Origin: Chloroflexota bacterium
GTDB lineage: Bacteria; Chloroflexota; Dehalococcoidia; Lucifugimonadales; QGNO01
Direction: 5' to 3'
NCBI GenBank assembly: GCA_003228195.2
Contig: QGNO01000001.1
Location: 85,550 to 149,549 of the forward strand
Length of the DNA stretch: 64,000 bases
Below are positions 17,672 through 40,335 of this stretch, piece after piece. Numbering within the stretch: position 1 is the first letter of the stretch; each line of letters opens with the position of its first letter. The position numbers and the translations under genes were made by a program. The notes beneath the pieces were generated by a model. The model worked only from the letters and a program-made list of their open reading frames with translations. It was not told the DNA's origin and did not search any database.

Positions 17672-17747
17672 GGGGCTGTAGCTCAGTTGGGAGAGCGCCT
17701 CAATGGCATTGAGGAGGTCAAGGGTTCGACTCCCTTCAGCTCCACCA
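17672..17747 (+). tRNA. tRNA-Ala (anticodon GGC), 3' CCA encoded
   Basis: Folded by hand: acceptor GGGGCTG/CAGCTCC with the G3:U70 Ala identity pair, and D arm GCTC-AGTTGGGA-GAGC. The anticodon arm is CCTCA-atGGCat-TGAGG and the T arm is AAGGG-TTCGACT-CCCTT. Total 76 nt ending in CCA. Confidence 0.95.
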
Positions 17748-34980: not shown

Positions 34981-35691
34981 TTGAGCCGCCCTACGAGTGG
35001 ACCCATTATGAGCAATTTACAGCCAAGAATTACAGGATTATTTGTTACTCTAGCGACGTTATTTATTGCGCTTTTAATAACCTCAAACATAATTGCCGTT
35101 AAGATAATTGAAGTCGGTGGACGGATCGTACCTGCGGCGATAGTTCTATTTCCTTTAACCTACATAATTGGTGATATCCTTACTGAGGTCTATGGGTATA
35201 GATTAGCAAGAAAGGTAATCTGGTTGGGTTTCTTGGGCAACTTTGTTGCAGTGGTTGGATTCTGGTTGGGTGGTTTGTTGCCCGCCGCCGAGTTTTGGGG
35301 CAACGATGAGGCTTATCACATCATATTGGGGGCTACCCCCAGATTACTTGTTGCATCTTTGGGTGGATATCTAGTAGGGGAATTCACCAATTCGATTGTA
35401 CTATCGAAGCTGAAACTGGCTACAGATGGTCGGTGGTTGTGGATGCGCACAATTGGCTCTACGGTAGTTGGTCAAGGGCTGGACTCAATCGTTTTCATAT
35501 CTGTGGCGTTTGTTGGCACTTTGGCATTTAATAATCTTACAGAATTAATAGTCACTCAGTGGTTGGTTAAAGTTTTCTATGAAATATTGGCTACCCCGTT
35601 GACATATCTGACTGTAAGCTACGTGAAGAAGTGGGATGGAATAGACACGTACGATACTGACGTATCTATAAACCCACTTGATTTGAGATAG
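34981..35691 (+). CDS. yhhQ: Queuosine-precursor transporter (YhhQ / DUF165, VUT family)
   Basis: IVLFPLTYIIGDILTEVYGY and the multi-pass membrane profile are typical of YhhQ. An alternative ATG start lies at 35008. Confidence 0.84.
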   Translation: MSRPTSGPIMSNLQPRITGLFVTLATLFIALLITSNIIAVKIIEVGGRIVPAAIVLFPLTYIIGDILTEVYGYRLARKVIWLGFLGNFVAVVGFWLGGLLPAAEFWGNDEAYHIILGATPRLLVASLGGYLVGEFTNSIVLSKLKLATDGRWLWMRTIGSTVVGQGLDSIVFISVAFVGTLAFNNLTELIVTQWLVKVFYEILATPLTYLTVSYVKKWDGIDTYDTDVSINPLDLR

Positions 35692-35715: not shown

Positions 35716-37269
35716 CTAGCCATTAAATTCCGTAATGGGCTGAGCTAGTATCCACAGGCTTGTCATCGTGTAGGCTATCATTAATACTAGCATCGGGTAC
35801 TGGCTTCTTAACGCAGACCTACGATCCTTTAGTTGCCTCACCGCGGTTACGTGCGATATGTAAACAGCTATTATGTGGCCCAGAACGATCGCCGCTACCG
35901 ATACTACCCAGGCAAACTTAGCATTTACTATCGCTATGTTTGGTTTGAATGTTGCAGTCCCGAAAAGGTCCCATCCGTAACCGAATGGATCTGAAACAAG
36001 AGTTATCAGGAGTTGTCCCTGTATAAGTAGGTAGGATAGATAATGCGATAGATGATACGCGAGAGCTATTGGAATCAAGGAGAAAACAAACAATTTGGCG
36101 AATTTTAATGTGTCGACCGACTCGTTACTAAAGTAAGACATGGCTCTACAAAAAATTAGATATACAGTAAGAAACAAGAGCGGAAAAAGTAAAAGCCCAA
36201 AAGTCTCTACTCCAAGCAACCGAGAGCCGCCGAGGAATTCAAAAATGGGTAGCATCGCAAAGGCTATATCAACCCACAAAGGGGTGGCAGTGAATCCGTC
36301 GAAAGTAACTGTAGATAAAATCAGTATTACCGTGGCGAATAAAGAAAGAGAAGTATTTTGTCCGTTTAATAGACCTGCCCCAAATGGCCTCAGATTAACC
36401 TGCCGGGCTGCTTCAGGCGACCGATTAAAACAGTTGTAACAGTTCACACATCCGTTAACGTTGTATTCACAGTCCGAGACACAAAAAAGGCAAAGTTTAT
36501 CCGAGTTAACCCTAACTTCTGTAGGTGCGAAACTTCCGAATAAGTCAAAAAATATGGTGAAAATATCCCCATTACTTATCCATTTCTCTTTCCCGAAAAT
36601 AAACATTCCGATCCAATTGATGAAGGAATAATAAAGTATAAAAATAGAAAGAGTTCTTGGGGTCGCTGAACTCGGGTATACAAGTTCTACCCAAGCGAAT
36701 AGCAGGAACAGGGAAAAGGCTGGCCAGACGCCCAAGCGGGTCGGGTAGCGGCAATTTAGTGACAATCTATCGTTGTGGGAAATGCGTCTATAAATCCCGT
36801 CAGCTATTTCAAATAAAGTTTTGAGTGGGTTAATAAATTTCCAGACGTTGCCTACTAAAGCGGCTACGTAAGTCAGAGCTACCCAAAAGATAATCCATAC
36901 CATTGTCGGCGCTAGATTCTTAATGGGTCCTTGGTCTCCGATCAACCCAGAGGCGATGGTCAGGATGAAAGCCAATAACGCAAAACCTTTAACTAGAGTG
37001 TGAATCACACGATTTTTTAGGAACCAGCCCACTCTTTTGTGATAGATGTCTACCGTAGTATAAGAGCCTGAAGGCTTGCTATTACGGAGGAAATAAGCTA
37101 TCAGTAGAAATGATAGTCCCACTGCGGCACCGGCGCCAATAAGATATATCGATAGTGGGACTGGTAAATCGTACCGTTCCCCAAAGCCGTGTGCATACGT
37201 TGGTTGAATTGCTAAGCTTAGTATTAAAGCAATGGAAAGACCGACTACAACTCTTGGCGTTGCGTTCAA
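35716..37269 (-). CDS. Uncharacterised polytopic membrane protein with a predicted mature N-terminal His and a six-Cys loop
   Basis: 517 aa. Signal-like N-terminus ...IQPTYA/HGFGERYDLPVPL, at least 10 hydrophobic segments, and a loop C260-x2-C-x3-C-x6-C-x2-C-x2-C280 encoded at about 36430-36492. Last gene of a three-gene operon. No family recognised. Confidence 0.7.
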   Translation of the reverse strand: MNATPRVVVGLSIALILSLAIQPTYAHGFGERYDLPVPLSIYLIGAGAAVGLSFLLIAYFLRNSKPSGSYTTVDIYHKRVGWFLKNRVIHTLVKGFALLAFILTIASGLIGDQGPIKNLAPTMVWIIFWVALTYVAALVGNVWKFINPLKTLFEIADGIYRRISHNDRLSLNCRYPTRLGVWPAFSLFLLFAWVELVYPSSATPRTLSIFILYYSFINWIGMFIFGKEKWISNGDIFTIFFDLFGSFAPTEVRVNSDKLCLFCVSDCEYNVNGCVNCYNCFNRSPEAARQVNLRPFGAGLLNGQNTSLSLFATVILILSTVTFDGFTATPLWVDIAFAMLPIFEFLGGSRLLGVETFGLLLFPLLFLTVYLIFCRAMSYFSNESVDTLKFAKLFVFSLIPIALAYHLSHYLSYLLIQGQLLITLVSDPFGYGWDLFGTATFKPNIAIVNAKFAWVVSVAAIVLGHIIAVYISHVTAVRQLKDRRSALRSQYPMLVLMIAYTMTSLWILAQPITEFNG

Positions 37270-37281
37270 TTGTTAATCACC

Positions 37282-37725
37282 TCATTTGGGAAGTACTTCT
37301 AGGAATCCCAGGATGATATCTGCATTTTCGAATTCATGTGACACGCCTTTATCGGCTGTATCATGATTATGCTGATGTTCACCCTGTTTGTGATCTTCAC
37401 TATCGACATGCATTTCAAAAGCGAATTTGCCTGTGGCGTTGGCCTTGAATTGGATTTCAGAGGTCTGCCCTGTTTTTATTATTGACTCCAAATCGTACCC
37501 ATGTATATGGAGTGTTCCGTCTTCATCCGTTGTTATGTGCAATGTCACTTGGTCATCTTGAGTTACTCTGAGTTTATTATGTTCTGCTCCAACGGTCCGA
37601 TTAACAATGGATAAATTAAAGTTTCTAGCGACTGGTTCTCGATTCCCGCTGCACCCTATGACTAATAACGTTAATAGGACGAGAATGCCTGCGAGTGAGG
37701 TATTGCATGTTGGTTTTAGGGTCAA
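37282..37725 (-). CDS. His-rich lipoprotein, cupredoxin-like beta-sandwich (tentative)
   Basis: Lipobox LLVIGC. LRVTQDDQVTLHITTDEDGTLHIHGYDLE...GKFAFEMH resembles Cys-less cupredoxin_1-type domains. His/acidic tail HVDSEDHKQGEHQHNHD. Confidence 0.62.
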   Translation of the reverse strand: MTLKPTCNTSLAGILVLLTLLVIGCSGNREPVARNFNLSIVNRTVGAEHNKLRVTQDDQVTLHITTDEDGTLHIHGYDLESIIKTGQTSEIQFKANATGKFAFEMHVDSEDHKQGEHQHNHDTADKGVSHEFENADIILGFLEVLPK

Positions 37726-37771
37726 CGCTGATCTCCTTATAGATAGGCTTTAACGCATAATTATAAGTCGA

Positions 37772-38281
37772 TTATTTTTTAGAGACAATTATTATTGCAG
37801 GAAGAATCAGTAATACCCCAACTAATATGGACGCAATAATTTCCCAATTGATTTTTGTGTCTGAAACAGTGACTATGAAACTGCCATCAATCGTTGAGTG
37901 ATCCAATTTGATTATGGGCTTCAAATTGTAATCACCCGTAGCTGTCACTGGTACGGAAACGTCATAGTGCACTGGCAGTATGGAGGAGATACTTCCATGG
38001 GCAATGTATCTCCCTCCGTCGCTTCCCTCTACCTGAATAACAATTTCTTTAGCTTCAATTGGAACATTGTTCTCTAGGACGTGGACTGACAGCGATAGTT
38101 GGCCAACAAGATGGCTCGCATCCCTAGAAAAGACAACAATTTGTATGGGCCCTTCTACTTTGCTGAACAATTCTATATTGGTGGCTCCATTCGCCATAAC
38201 TGGATGTGTTGAGACGAACCAAGCTAAAGAAACAGTAGCGAACAGGGCTAATCCAAGGCTAATCTGCATATTGTGAGTCAC
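37772..38281 (-). CDS. Secreted beta-rich (Ig-like, possibly FixH/YtkA-like) protein with a C-terminal membrane anchor
   Basis: 169 aa with a signal-like N-terminus (...STHPVMA/NG) and a C-terminal TM segment IIASILVGVLLILPAIIIVSKK. GTG start at 38281 or ATG at 38269. Confidence 0.6.
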   Translation of the reverse strand: MTHNMQISLGLALFATVSLAWFVSTHPVMANGATNIELFSKVEGPIQIVVFSRDASHLVGQLSLSVHVLENNVPIEAKEIVIQVEGSDGGRYIAHGSISSILPVHYDVSVPVTATGDYNLKPIIKLDHSTIDGSFIVTVSDTKINWEIIASILVGVLLILPAIIIVSKK

Positions 38282-38370: not shown

Positions 38371-40335
38371 CTATTGAGGAATGTGTTTTTCATACCAGTC
38401 TAATACTCTGTTTAGGTACTCTTCGCGCATTTTAAGGTGTCCGGAGTTTCGAAACCCGTGCGCTCCGCCTGGGAATCTTACAAACTCAACCTTTTTACCT
38501 AGCCTCTTAAGGGCTACAAAATATTGTTCGCTTTGACCGATTGGGCAGCGCAGATCAGACTCTCCGTGTAGTAATAGCACTGGAGTTTCTACGTTTGGTG
38601 CGTAGGTTATAGGTGATCGCTTTATCAGCTCATCAAATACGACGTCACGGCGCCCACCCCACTGCTTCTCCCCGAAACTTATTCCTATGTCTGAAGTCCC
38701 TGACATACTGGAGAGATCTATACAAGGAGCACCTACTATCGCGGCCTTAAATCTGTCAGTATGGCCAACTATCCAACTTGTCATGTACCCTCCGTAACTG
38801 TACCCATGCACCCCCATGCGTGACTGATCGACGTATGGCTTTTCGATCATTTCGTCGACGGCTTGCATAAGGTCTAGGTAGTCTTCACCACCCCAATCAT
38901 TTAGCACGGCCATAGTAAAGTCACTTCCGTAAGTTGATGAGCCTCTCGGATTCACAGCCAGCACGATGTATCCTGCGTTTGCTAAAATCTGATGCAGTGG
39001 ATTGAAGGCATCTGTAAATACACCGTTAGGCCCACCATGTATTTCTAGAATCATTGGGTACTTTTTTGACTCGTCAAAATCTGGAGGTAGCATTATTCTG
39101 GACTGTATTCGGAACCCCGCTCTTTCGAGCTCGAACTTATTCAATTTGCCCAGTGAATGCTCTGACAGGTAGTCGCCGTTGTAATCGACTATCTTTTTGG
39201 CTTCTCCACTCGGAATTCTTACCACTTCAATATTACTCGGTGCGTCAGGGGATACTGAAACCACAGCGGCGAGTGAAGCGTCTGAATTCATTGACATTGC
39301 GGTCAACTGTGCATTGCCGCCATAGAGTTTGTTCACTGCTCCGCCTGATTCTGATATTGAGCAAATAAAGGTTTCTCCTTGCGAATCTGCAAGAAAATAA
39401 ATGGTACCGGAAGCTGTCCAATGGATTTTTGTGAATGGCCCCTGGGGTGGAAAGCCAGCTACAGGCTTTATAGAGTCGTCCGTAATCTTTTTGAGATCCT
39501 TTCTTGGATTCACAATGTATATCCAGCCTTGATAGCTTGCACTACCATTCTCAATGTCCGAACCTACCACTATCAGACCATTGCCATTTGGCGACCATGC
39601 TATTGTGGCTATTGTGTGTAGACCACTTGACGTCATTTCTGGATCTCCGCCGGTAGGCGAAACTACGTAGGCTTGGGAGTAATCAAACAAATCTCTATCA
39701 TCGGACCTCTCTGAAATGAAAGCTATCTTAGATGCATCTGGTGACCAAGCGGGAGCGTAATTTTCAAAGTCGCCAGAGGTAATTTGATTGCAATCGGTTG
39801 TCATGACATCTGTTACAAACAATTGCCTGTGTCCGTCACCACGCCACCCTAATACGTCATGTCTATATTTTATTCTGGTGACAACTTTCACTAGTGGATT
39901 TTTCTTTGGATCGTGATCAGATGGCAATCCATCGGGATCAACATTGGAAACTAGTACTACACGATAGTCTATGGGAGACCATGCGAAGTCACTTACTCCA
40001 CCAACCAGCTTGGTCACTTGTGACGCTTCCCCACCTCTAGTTGGAATTATCCATACTTGATTTTTCCCATCGGAGTCTGCTCGCAAGAAGCCTAAATATC
40101 GATCGTCATGGGAGAATAATGGATGAGAGTCCTTCCGGCCATGAGTGAATTGCACTATCGATCCGTCCGCTAGGCTTGCCAGTTCGATTTGAGATTTGTC
40201 TTCTAATTCTTGTTCGTCGACCCAAGATTTAGTGAAAGTCAAATACTTACCATCTTTTGACATGTCCGGTGCTGAGACGTTAATGAGTCGATAGACTATG
40301 TCTGGATTTATAGGACTACTCATTTCGTCCTCCAT
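38371..40335 (-). CDS. S9-family serine peptidase (prolyl oligopeptidase / acylaminoacyl peptidase-like) with an N-terminal beta-propeller
   Basis: Nucleophile elbow GYSYGGYM and LLLHGESDLRCP. The N-terminal region has WD40-like/TolB-like repeats. 654 aa. Confidence 0.9.
   Translation of the reverse strand: MEDEMSSPINPDIVYRLINVSAPDMSKDGKYLTFTKSWVDEQELEDKSQIELASLADGSIVQFTHGRKDSHPLFSHDDRYLGFLRADSDGKNQVWIIPTRGGEASQVTKLVGGVSDFAWSPIDYRVVLVSNVDPDGLPSDHDPKKNPLVKVVTRIKYRHDVLGWRGDGHRQLFVTDVMTTDCNQITSGDFENYAPAWSPDASKIAFISERSDDRDLFDYSQAYVVSPTGGDPEMTSSGLHTIATIAWSPNGNGLIVVGSDIENGSASYQGWIYIVNPRKDLKKITDDSIKPVAGFPPQGPFTKIHWTASGTIYFLADSQGETFICSISESGGAVNKLYGGNAQLTAMSMNSDASLAAVVSVSPDAPSNIEVVRIPSGEAKKIVDYNGDYLSEHSLGKLNKFELERAGFRIQSRIMLPPDFDESKKYPMILEIHGGPNGVFTDAFNPLHQILANAGYIVLAVNPRGSSTYGSDFTMAVLNDWGGEDYLDLMQAVDEMIEKPYVDQSRMGVHGYSYGGYMTSWIVGHTDRFKAAIVGAPCIDLSSMSGTSDIGISFGEKQWGGRRDVVFDELIKRSPITYAPNVETPVLLLHGESDLRCPIGQSEQYFVALKRLGKKVEFVRFPGGAHGFRNSGHLKMREEYLNRVLDWYEKHIPQ

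Follow-up and report, generated by a model that had tools for sequence, protein, structure and literature searches.

Three adjacent genes on contig QGNO01000001.1 of a marine Chloroflexota bacterium (GenBank assembly GCA_003228195.2; Dehalococcoidia, Lucifugimonadales) form a co-conserved envelope operon that may encode a copper acquisition or trafficking module, probably for uptake, at the outer face of the cytoplasmic membrane. We infer the metal, the direction, and the mechanism, and we give this reading about an even chance of being correct. The genes lie within a stretch of 64,000 nucleotides (nt) (contig positions 85,550–149,549, forward strand), hereafter the window. In order of transcription they encode a membrane-anchored extracytoplasmic protein with a weak likeness to YtkA (gene 1), a lipoprotein with a Cys-less cupredoxin fold (gene 2), and a polytopic membrane protein from a family that has no name (gene 3). 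An earlier note, made from the sequence alone, had proposed a co-conserved envelope operon of no characterised family with a candidate role in copper handling, and that core claim is supported by family searches, synteny, and the copper contexts of homologous loci.

The three open reading frames (ORFs), of 169, 147, and 517 amino acids (aa), share the minus strand of the window with spacings of 46 and 12 nt, and hydropathy predicts that all three products face or span the envelope. The earlier note had read the ORF list in the same way, and its description of the proteins also held. The first is a secreted beta-rich protein with a C-terminal transmembrane (TM) anchor (hydropathy segment 148–166), the second is a lipoprotein by its lipobox pattern with a Cys-less cupredoxin fold (AlphaFold model, Foldseek probability 1.00), and the third is a polytopic membrane protein in which a signal-like segment precedes about ten hydrophobic segments. 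The strings that it had singled out (TLHIHGYDLE, GKFAFEMH, and HVDSEDHKQGEHQHNHD) and the Cys cluster are all present. A pattern scan found no terminator-like site in the minus-strand gaps within the trio; counts from the promoter and terminator scans equalled shuffled expectation and are uninformative. Each gene occurs once in the window, and a search of the window revealed no CopC/CopD, no paralogues of the trio, and no His-rich DHHFAER protein of the kind described below. Other assemblies or contigs carry this trio and neighbourhood, with a 100% identical 517-aa protein, and this protein is also 100% identical to a ‘hypothetical protein’ in a Chloroflexi metagenome-assembled genome (MAG).

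Synteny was assessed with the ORFs of 83 related loci by iterative search with the window proteins. A cupredoxin homologue was encoded directly upstream of the gene 3 homologue in 55 of these 83 loci and in all phyla sampled (among them Chloroflexota, Rokubacteria/Methylomirabilota, and Proteobacteria), bearing out the co-occurrence check set by the earlier note. The pair was also present in Variovorax (partner E 1e-27), Nonomuraea, and three mycobacteria. A gene 1 homologue was found upstream of the module in 45/83 loci, mostly from Chloroflexota, and the order of the trio was kept in relatives with 48–58% identity. Eleven of the 83 loci had no partner of any kind, about half of them being too short upstream to judge. 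The genes flanking the module differ between genomes, with ribosomal operons in one and catabolic genes elsewhere, and no family is enriched among them. Given such heterogeneous flanks, the module is self-contained.

A fourth small gene, encoding 130–180 aa, stands ahead of the YtkA-like gene in 27/83 loci and is not found in the window, whose lineage lost it or never had it. Its product has an N-terminal TM segment followed by a His-rich region (DHHFAERxPxHxH...HxH...HxH) and gave no Pfam or NCBIfam match.

Gene 3 belongs to a large family without a name. The 517-aa protein returned no Pfam and no NCBIfam match at E ≤ 1, and neither phmmer nor a profile search matched it to a PDB sequence. 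Its AlphaFold model (predicted local distance difference test (pLDDT) 80.7, predicted template modelling score (pTM) 0.81) found nothing in the PDB with Foldseek at E ≤ 0.001; the best match had E 0.04, with TM-scores of 0.14–0.15. Profile and fold checks proposed in the earlier note thus place the protein in no named family. An internal 5+5 repeat is typical of transporters; none was detectable in gene 3, whose N- and C-terminal halves aligned with an hhalign probability of 0.5%. A word-indexed search returned >4,000 relatives, in which Pfam domains were limited to C-terminal tetratricopeptide repeat (TPR) fusions, and an exhaustive profile search gave, at 50% identity, 6,371 clusters with E ≤ 1e-3, of which 1,548 reached E ≤ 1e-30. 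Homologues occur in at least 576 GTDB species genomes. The top 80 loci belong to Dehalococcoidia/SAR202, Rokubacteria/Methylomirabilota, Alpha-, Beta-, Gamma-, and Deltaproteobacteria, Nitrospiraceae, Rubrobacter, and Gemmatimonadaceae. Among cultured organisms, homologues are known from, for instance, Variovorax, Rhizobium, Ralstonia, Nonomuraea, several mycobacteria, Roseobacters, and haloarchaea; where these homologues are annotated, they are called ‘hypothetical protein’. Our literature search found no paper describing the family.

Conservation within the family was counted in an alignment of 260 full-length members, with denominators that vary by column. Four His residues are practically invariant (Table 1), the first of them at a predicted cleavage site. 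Residue −1 of the signal-peptide junction is Ala in 232/243 members, with Ala or Val at −3 in 215/243; together with the preceding hydrophobic stretch, these residues make a canonical AxA signal-peptidase I site that is predicted to expose His27 as the mature N-terminus. The predicted junction exposes His in 95% of the members with Ala at −1. The 12 residues after the cleavage site, HGFGERYDLPVP, are strongly conserved. Residues 18–40 have pLDDT < 50, and this low modelling confidence suggests that the N-terminal arm is flexible. E195, D324, D427, Q490, and M497 are also essentially invariant, and H27, D324, H409, H465, H473, and Q490 persist in bacterial and archaeal homologues of 26–30% identity.

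Loops in the 260 members alternate between K/R-rich (1.1–2.2 per 10 residues) and K/R-poor (0.3–0.8 per 10 residues). Combined with the AlphaFold helices, this alternation points to a topology of 10 TM helices with both termini outside. Residue depths were taken from sequence position within the predicted helices: H27, E195, D324, D427, and H409 would lie on the outer side, H465 (with M497) in mid-membrane, and H473 (with Q490) on the cytoplasmic side. The Cys cluster falls in a cytoplasmic loop. Six Cys were counted in 138/260 members and none in 90/260; the spacing C-x2-C-x3-C-x6-C-x2-C-x2-C-[FW] (F in the window) is shared by 108 of the 138 six-Cys members. Because so many members have no Cys cluster, we regard this Cys6 insert as an optional extra and not as part of the core of gene 3. 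Its lone resemblance was to the zinc-ribbon ribosomal protein eL40, at a non-significant E of 0.9.

Some homologues of gene 3 are longer. These forms, of 908–977 aa, carry an extra C-terminal domain of ~400 aa related to PDB 7fi3, a protein of the substrate-binding protein (SBP) family 5 type (E 5.3e-16), although Pfam SBP_bac_5 does not detect it. Such a fusion agrees with the C-out topology and hints at transport. Five of the seven long-form loci that were examined encode a secreted protein of ~385 aa upstream of the cupredoxin gene; the copies are 45–88% identical, share an invariant G-H-E-x-P-x-Y-P-S-[YF]-Y-P just past the signal peptide, and have no Pfam or PDB match. A Rokubacteria MAG contains paired, divergent gene 3 paralogues with a cupredoxin gene between them.

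The usual partner of gene 3 is the lipoprotein encoded by gene 2. Its one hydrophobic segment is N-terminal and ends at the lipobox (...LLTLL-V22-I23-G24-C25-SGN), which fits the pattern [LVI][ASTVI][GAS]C. Homologues from Chloroflexota and mycobacteria have lipobox-like ends (...AC or GC), and several proteobacterial ones have an ordinary signal peptide. This variation by host fits a site of action for gene 2 beyond the cytoplasmic membrane, whether the host is monoderm or diderm. Pfam Cupredoxin_1 (PF13473) matched gene 2 at 21.7 bits (E 2.1e-4), below its 27-bit gathering threshold, and some homologues carry a precomputed PF13473 match. Cu-oxidase_2 scored 19.8 bits for a cut-off of 20.4, and the NCBIfam matches, to NosZ and nitrosocyanin, were weak. 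Profile search counted at least 2,992 proteins in the family. Among PDB sequences, its profile found Cu nitrite reductase (E 1.3e-6), two-domain multicopper oxidases (MCOs; 8e-6 and 2.9e-5), and nitrosocyanin (4.4e-4). The AlphaFold model has a pLDDT of 80 overall and >90 in the beta-core (residues 31–107 and 136–145), and Foldseek matched it with probability 1.00 to CuA domains, NosZ, nitrosocyanin, the zinc-bound Cupredoxin_1 protein 4hcg, and two-domain MCOs/laccases. We are confident in modelling the fold as a cupredoxin Greek-key beta-sandwich.

H73, H75, G76, Y77, D78, H106, and E143 are invariant among 65 aligned sequences of the gene 2 family. H73, H75, and H106, with D78 or E143, make up a candidate ligand set that appears characteristic of the family. 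The HxHG portion aligns with the HWHG of domain 1 of the MCO 3g5w. The His/acidic tail varies in length and content within the family, and residues 113–132 have pLDDT < 50. The only Cys residues of gene 2 are C7 in the signal peptide and C25 in the lipobox, so the mature domain is Cys-less, and neither of the two family alignments has a conserved Cys column. Identification as a type-1, CuA, or red-copper protein was ruled out by the absence of the Cys thiolate ligand; having no Cys, gene 2 is not a type-1 or CuA electron carrier. MCOs have at least two cupredoxin domains, in which HxHG, HxH, HxxHxH, and HCHxxxH form the T1 and trinuclear sites. Gene 2 was ruled out as an MCO, as it is a single domain with an HxHG-like motif, one more His only, and no HCH. 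It thus shares with the cupredoxin superfamily the fold, the profile similarity, and an HxHG counterpart of the MCO motif, and differs in being a single domain of ~100 residues without Cys and without the Met-containing C-terminal loop.

Gene callers set the start of gene 1 four codons later, which gives a protein of 165 aa. Cleavage of its signal peptide is predicted after VMA30 (VMA30/NG). The protein itself has no Pfam and no NCBIfam match. Its family profile (31 members) matches PDB 9ll2, ‘Copper resistance protein’, at E 2.3e-4 across the domain core, along the pattern ...A.V.v......Y.....G.W...v..., and Pfam YtkA (PF13115) matches 13 of the 31 members weakly and below threshold (best E 0.0015). 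This weak signal is suggestive of a YtkA-like, immunoglobulin (Ig)-type copper-chaperone domain.

Two statements of the earlier note stand in part. The phrase ‘no recognisable family’ applies to the 517-aa protein, which has no matches, and only partly to the 147-aa and 169-aa proteins, given the Cupredoxin_1 score of the one and the weak YtkA likeness of the other. ‘Obvious metal-ligand-rich features’ are indeed present, but both of them, the Cys cluster and the His/acidic tail, vary and are dispensable, the former missing from 90 of the 260 members and the latter modelled with low confidence. To judge from conservation, the metal-ligand candidates are more probably the HxH...H set of the cupredoxin together with the N-terminal His and the three TM His of gene 3.

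The gene neighbourhoods also point to copper. Seven Dehalococcoidia loci without the cupredoxin encode instead a fusion of 750–800 aa that joins CopC, CopD, a YtkA-like region, and cytochrome c, that is, a YcnJ-like protein plus a c-type heme domain. The fusion gene occupies the cupredoxin position directly upstream of the gene 3 homologue, except at locus L061, where ~2.4 kb of unrelated ORFs lie between. Pfam identified CopC (5e-20), CopD (3e-17), and Cytochrome_CBB3 (1e-12) in the fusion at locus L039. At one further locus a cytochrome c gene is directly upstream of the gene 3 homologue. In mycobacteria, a plasmid of M. dioxanotrophicus PH-06 carries sigC and genes for a lipoprotein, a cupredoxin-like protein, the gene 3 homologue, and a zf-HC2 anti-sigma factor, followed by copper membrane monooxygenase (CuMMO) genes C, A, and B. 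A plasmid of M. chubuense NBB4 carries hmoAB and then, further along, sigC and the lipoprotein, cupredoxin-like, and gene 3 homologues. The pair on a plasmid of M. gallinarum sits amid CopC, a metal-sensitive regulator, heme-copper oxidase subunit III, TlpA, and an oxidase assembly protein. Next to the gene 3 homologue of Sulfitobacter is a gene for a PCuAC chaperone. All of the metal-specific neighbours found are copper genes (CopC/CopD, PCuAC, CuMMO, a CtaG-type assembly factor, and sigC), and they occur independently in three phyla; among the neighbourhoods examined there were no recurring nickel, zinc, or iron regulators or enzymes.

The mycobacterial sigC cassette next to the CuMMO genes is extracytoplasmic function (ECF)-like. 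In M. tuberculosis, SigC protects against copper starvation (PMC7924339). In a review of monooxygenase regulation in NBB4, sigC appears solely as a candidate smo regulator, and the two genes that follow it are not discussed (PMC8784404). A role of the sigC of this cassette in copper supply seems at least as likely as regulation of the neighbouring soluble monooxygenase.

The CopCD-containing loci encode an additional anchored protein of 227–385 aa with a predicted mature N-terminal His (...FA/HDDEE... or ...LA/HGDEE...). Its other features are a C-terminal TM helix and an insert that is acidic or rich in His; no Pfam or NCBIfam match was found for it.

A mechanism can be proposed for copper uptake by the trio, with ligand geometry drawn from the placement of residues along the predicted helices. 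The gene 2 cupredoxin would bind Cu at H73/H75/H106, possibly with D78 or E143, and pass it to the flexible N-terminal His27 of gene 3. His27 might act as a brace or ‘fishing-line’ ligand together with E195, D324, D427, and H409 on the outer face. The ion would then descend a His ladder from H409 in the outer leaflet, through H465/M497 in mid-membrane, to H473/Q490 in the inner leaflet and the cytoplasm. In the members that have one, the Cys6 insert could receive Cu(I). The YtkA-like protein may be an accessory copper-binding partner, e.g., for loading cuproenzymes.

Several points weigh against copper uptake. A His-lined path is unusual for Cu(I), for which Met or Cys is usual, and no energy-coupling component is evident. 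The Cupredoxin_1 structure 4hcg contains zinc, which leaves room for a metal other than copper. The YtkA-like assignment of gene 1 is below threshold. Distant homologues of gene 3 (26–30% identity; Rhizobiales, Roseobacters, and haloarchaea) have no cupredoxin partner and lie in nicotinate-catabolism or unrelated neighbourhoods, and the contexts of the Sagittula homologue, beside an esterase, and of a haloarchaeal one, beside an aldehyde oxidoreductase, are unrelated to copper. Finally, a CopCD fusion in the same operon makes a second importer look redundant, which hints at a role other than import.

That shared operon would be explained if gene 3 were a transmembrane redox enzyme, i.e., a cupric or ferric reductase or an oxidase, following a logic like that of CcoG/FixG–FixH. 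The four invariant His, of which three lie in TM helices, would bind heme b or catalytic copper, electrons would come from the cytoplasm, via the Cys6 insert where present, and the cupredoxin and YtkA-like protein would be periplasmic substrates or partners. The cytoplasmic Cys-rich insert contains a CxxCxxC triplet, one Joint Genome Institute (JGI) record labels a homologue ‘polyferredoxin’, cytochrome c is fused to CopCD or encoded directly upstream of gene 3 in some loci, and the Ig-like partner would be of the YtkA/FixH type. However, the insert is absent from 35% of members, has no CxxCxxCxxxCP, and shows only its non-significant similarity to a zinc-ribbon protein. The His residues also lie at differing depths (N-terminus, outer, middle, and inner) and not in the 2+2 pattern of a di-heme protein, a Cys-less cupredoxin provides no type-1 or CuA electron carrier, and there is no Pfam match to cytochrome b, ferric reductase, or Fer4 families. 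We therefore consider a redox enzyme unlikely.

The comparison with FixG/CcoG and FixH had been made in the earlier note, which was right that ferredoxin motifs are missing; with the insert optional and no Pfam match, the comparison survives as an analogy only. What the systems share is a polytopic membrane protein, a cytoplasmic Cys-rich segment, a small anchored Ig-like partner, and a copper context. Gene 3 was rejected as a ferredoxin-type FixG/CcoG protein on four grounds: no CxxCxxCxxxCP, an optional insert, no Fer4/FixG Pfam match, and no PDB fold match.

The module might alternatively handle a metal other than copper, or a chelate of one (Ni, Zn, Co, Fe, or a metallophore), with the cupredoxin as a generic 3-His binder serving a secondary transporter, and this we think improbable. 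A site of three His plus a carboxylate, and a path lined with His, would serve Ni, Zn, and Fe(II) no less well than Cu(II), and 4hcg is zinc-bound. SBP family 5, to which the fused domain of the long forms is akin, includes nickel and metallophore binders. Distant homologues were found without copper genes, and N-terminal-His appendages of permeases bind Ni2+ too (PMC12537917). Against this, every metal-specific neighbour is a copper gene, regulators or enzymes for Ni, Zn, or Fe do not recur, and the proteins nearest to gene 2 by profile and by fold are copper proteins without exception.

Very unlikely, finally, is that gene 3 is unrelated to metals, being a small-organic permease or an envelope assembly factor with structural or catalytic His and coincidental copper-like neighbours: the Rhizobiales/Roseobacter homologue inside nicotinate-degradation clusters beside Liv-type ABC transporters, the esterase and aldehyde oxidoreductase neighbours of the Sagittula and haloarchaeal homologues, and an SBP-like fusion compatible with an organic substrate all suit such a role, but in the clade of the window gene a cupredoxin-fold protein is the invariant partner (the 55/83 loci above), it is replaced specifically by CopC–CopD fusions, copper neighbourhoods recur independently in three phyla, and an invariant His at a predicted signal-peptidase site is a recognised metal-chelating device (PMC12537917). 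The nicotinate-catabolism clusters are conserved and were seen around 26–28%-identical homologues on plasmid P3 of Sulfitobacter mediterraneus (L086) and a plasmid of Neorhizobium sp. NCHU2750 (L089); they contain 6-hydroxynicotinate reductase, nicAB-type molybdoenzymes, and a Liv-type ABC transporter.

The architecture of the trio, read as a copper module, is like that of CopC–CopD–YtkA (YcnJ) and of anglerase–permease pairs, and it is homologous to neither. YcnJ combines CopC, CopD, and YtkA and aids oxidase function under Cu limitation (PMC13344008). Labour is divided in the same way between an extracytoplasmic binder of beta-sandwich fold, a polytopic membrane protein bearing His, and an Ig domain, weakly YtkA-like in the trio, but the binder of the trio has a cupredoxin fold and is not CopC. 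CopC uses a cleavage-exposed N-terminal His on its soluble domain, and the trio is predicted to have one on the membrane protein. In Dehalococcoidia loci CopC–CopD is interchangeable with, or adjacent to, the module, and the two systems, which can share one operon, are maybe not redundant. Pfam CopC and CopD matched none of the trio proteins. We rejected gene 3 as a CopD (PF05425) homologue, with no Pfam match at E ≤ 1 and an hhalign probability of 0.35% against six CopC–CopD fusions. CtaK is a membrane-anchored lipoprotein (PMC13344008). Gene 1 is likewise membrane-anchored and extracytoplasmic in comparison with YtkA/CtaK-like domains, but its anchor is a C-terminal TM helix and not a lipid.

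The ‘anglerase’ (Ang-1/Ang-2) N-terminal-His domains on HupE/UreJ-2 permeases bind Cu2+ or Ni2+; their His is 100% conserved right after the signal peptide and has been proposed to capture metal that feeds the permease (PMC12537917). Gene 3 shares a predicted His-first mature N-terminus on a membrane protein. Its His, however, would sit on a short arm of ~12 residues directly before TM1 and not on a folded domain, and the gene 3 system has a separate cupredoxin partner. Gene 3 was ruled out as a HupE_UreJ_2 (PF13795) protein, having no Pfam match at E ≤ 1, ~490 aa, and 10 TM. What is new here is a core membrane protein that is non-homologous and of unmatched fold; the general plan of an extracytoplasmic metal binder with a membrane protein is known.

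Two genes border the trio in the window. A gene for an S9-family peptidase lies 90 nt upstream on the same strand and is syntenic only in close, 58%-identical relatives; because extra genes separate the two there, the peptidase is probably unrelated to the module. Downstream, a gene for a Vut_1/YhhQ-type transporter is convergent with the trio at a distance of 24 nt. The sole RNA gene of the window is a tRNA-Ala(GGC).

Table 1 Coordinates of the trio, its predicted features, and genes at the window and related loci (window positions, or locus:positions for loci labelled L).
Feature	Position	Strand	Basis or content
Gene 1, 169 aa	37772..38281	-	ORF list, hydropathy; signal peptide, beta-rich YtkA-like Ig domain (weak signal), C-terminal TM anchor
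Gene 1 C-terminal TM anchor, aa 148–166	37784..37840	-	Kyte–Doolittle peak 3.16; kept in family alignment
Gene 2, 147 aa, lipoprotein with Cys-less cupredoxin-fold domain	37282..37725	-	ORF list, AlphaFold, Foldseek, profile search
Gene 2 lipobox V22-I23-G24-C25	37651..37662	-	Pattern read from sequence, after hydrophobic segment
Gene 2 HxHGYD motif H73-I-H75-G-Y77-D78, candidate metal site	37492..37509	-	Invariant in both family alignments
Gene 2 H106 (invariant, third candidate ligand) and variable His/acidic tail, aa 106–122	37360..37410	-	Alignment, pLDDT
Gene 3, 517 aa, polytopic membrane protein	35716..37269	-	ORF list, AlphaFold, family searches
Gene 3 signal peptide, aa 1–26, ending T-Y-A	37192..37269	-	Hydrophobic segment 3–21 and family residue counts
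Gene 3 His27, predicted mature N-terminus	37189..37191	-	His in 250/251 aligned full-length members
Gene 3 optional Cys6 insert, C260, C263, C267, C274, C277, C280	36430..36492	-	Cytoplasmic K/R-rich TM5–TM6 loop
Gene 3 His409, TM8 outer half (helix 387–417)	36043..36045	-	His in 253/253 aligned members
Gene 3 His465–His473, GHIIAVYISH, TM9 (helix 450–479)	35851..35877	-	His in 249/250 and 248/250 members
S9-family peptidase gene	38371-40335	-	
Vut_1/YhhQ-type transporter gene	34981-35691	+	
tRNA-Ala(GGC)	17672-17747	+	
Fourth small gene, examples	L001:3212-3640, L003:3468-3860		25 further loci
CopC–CopD–cytochrome c fusions	L023:3734-5989, L039:3536-5767, L054:3582-5852, L061:1333-3603, L067:3582-5990, L076:3420-5708, L079:3562-5844		
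Anchored protein of 227–385 aa	L039:1606-2712, L054:1690-2847, L067:2252-2935, L079:2624-3511		
Gene 3 long forms	L016:1590-4352, L034:5914-8658, L052:3531-6260, L060:5896-8676, L063:5890-8718, L074:1590-4316, L083:2390-5323		
Secreted protein of ~385 aa	L016:436-1587, L034:4698-5909, L052:2040-3221, L060:4314-5471, L074:99-1280		
Paired gene 3 paralogues, Rokubacteria MAG	L081:3347-4780, L081:5449-7515	-, +	
M. dioxanotrophicus PH-06 cassette	L084:4490-12563		NZ_CP020812.1
M. chubuense NBB4 cassette	L087:1-8335		pMYCCH.01

Copper delivery to and across the bacterial cytoplasmic membrane is still poorly understood (PMC13344008; PMC11923076 on the E. coli AZY operon), and almost all of the abundant marine and groundwater Chloroflexota sampled have the module. 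If the copper reading is true, the trio would represent a new family of copper transporters and a new functional class of Cys-less cupredoxins, and would be an instance of N-terminal-His metal capture on a membrane protein. It would also be of use in expressing copper monooxygenases heterologously, where copper loading is often limiting. The cultured carriers Variovorax paradoxus, M. chubuense NBB4, and M. dioxanotrophicus PH-06 make the copper hypothesis directly testable. More tentatively, and with some doubt on our part, gene 3 may found a new class of membrane proteins that translocate metals or are metal-dependent catalysts, marked by an N-terminal His ‘brace’, an unseen fold, a His/Met path, and a dedicated Cys-less cupredoxin. 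Such a class would supply a major missing route of copper import in thousands of bacterial and archaeal lineages, among them SAR202, Rokubacteria, Methylomirabilota, the copper-monooxygenase mycobacteria, and haloarchaea.

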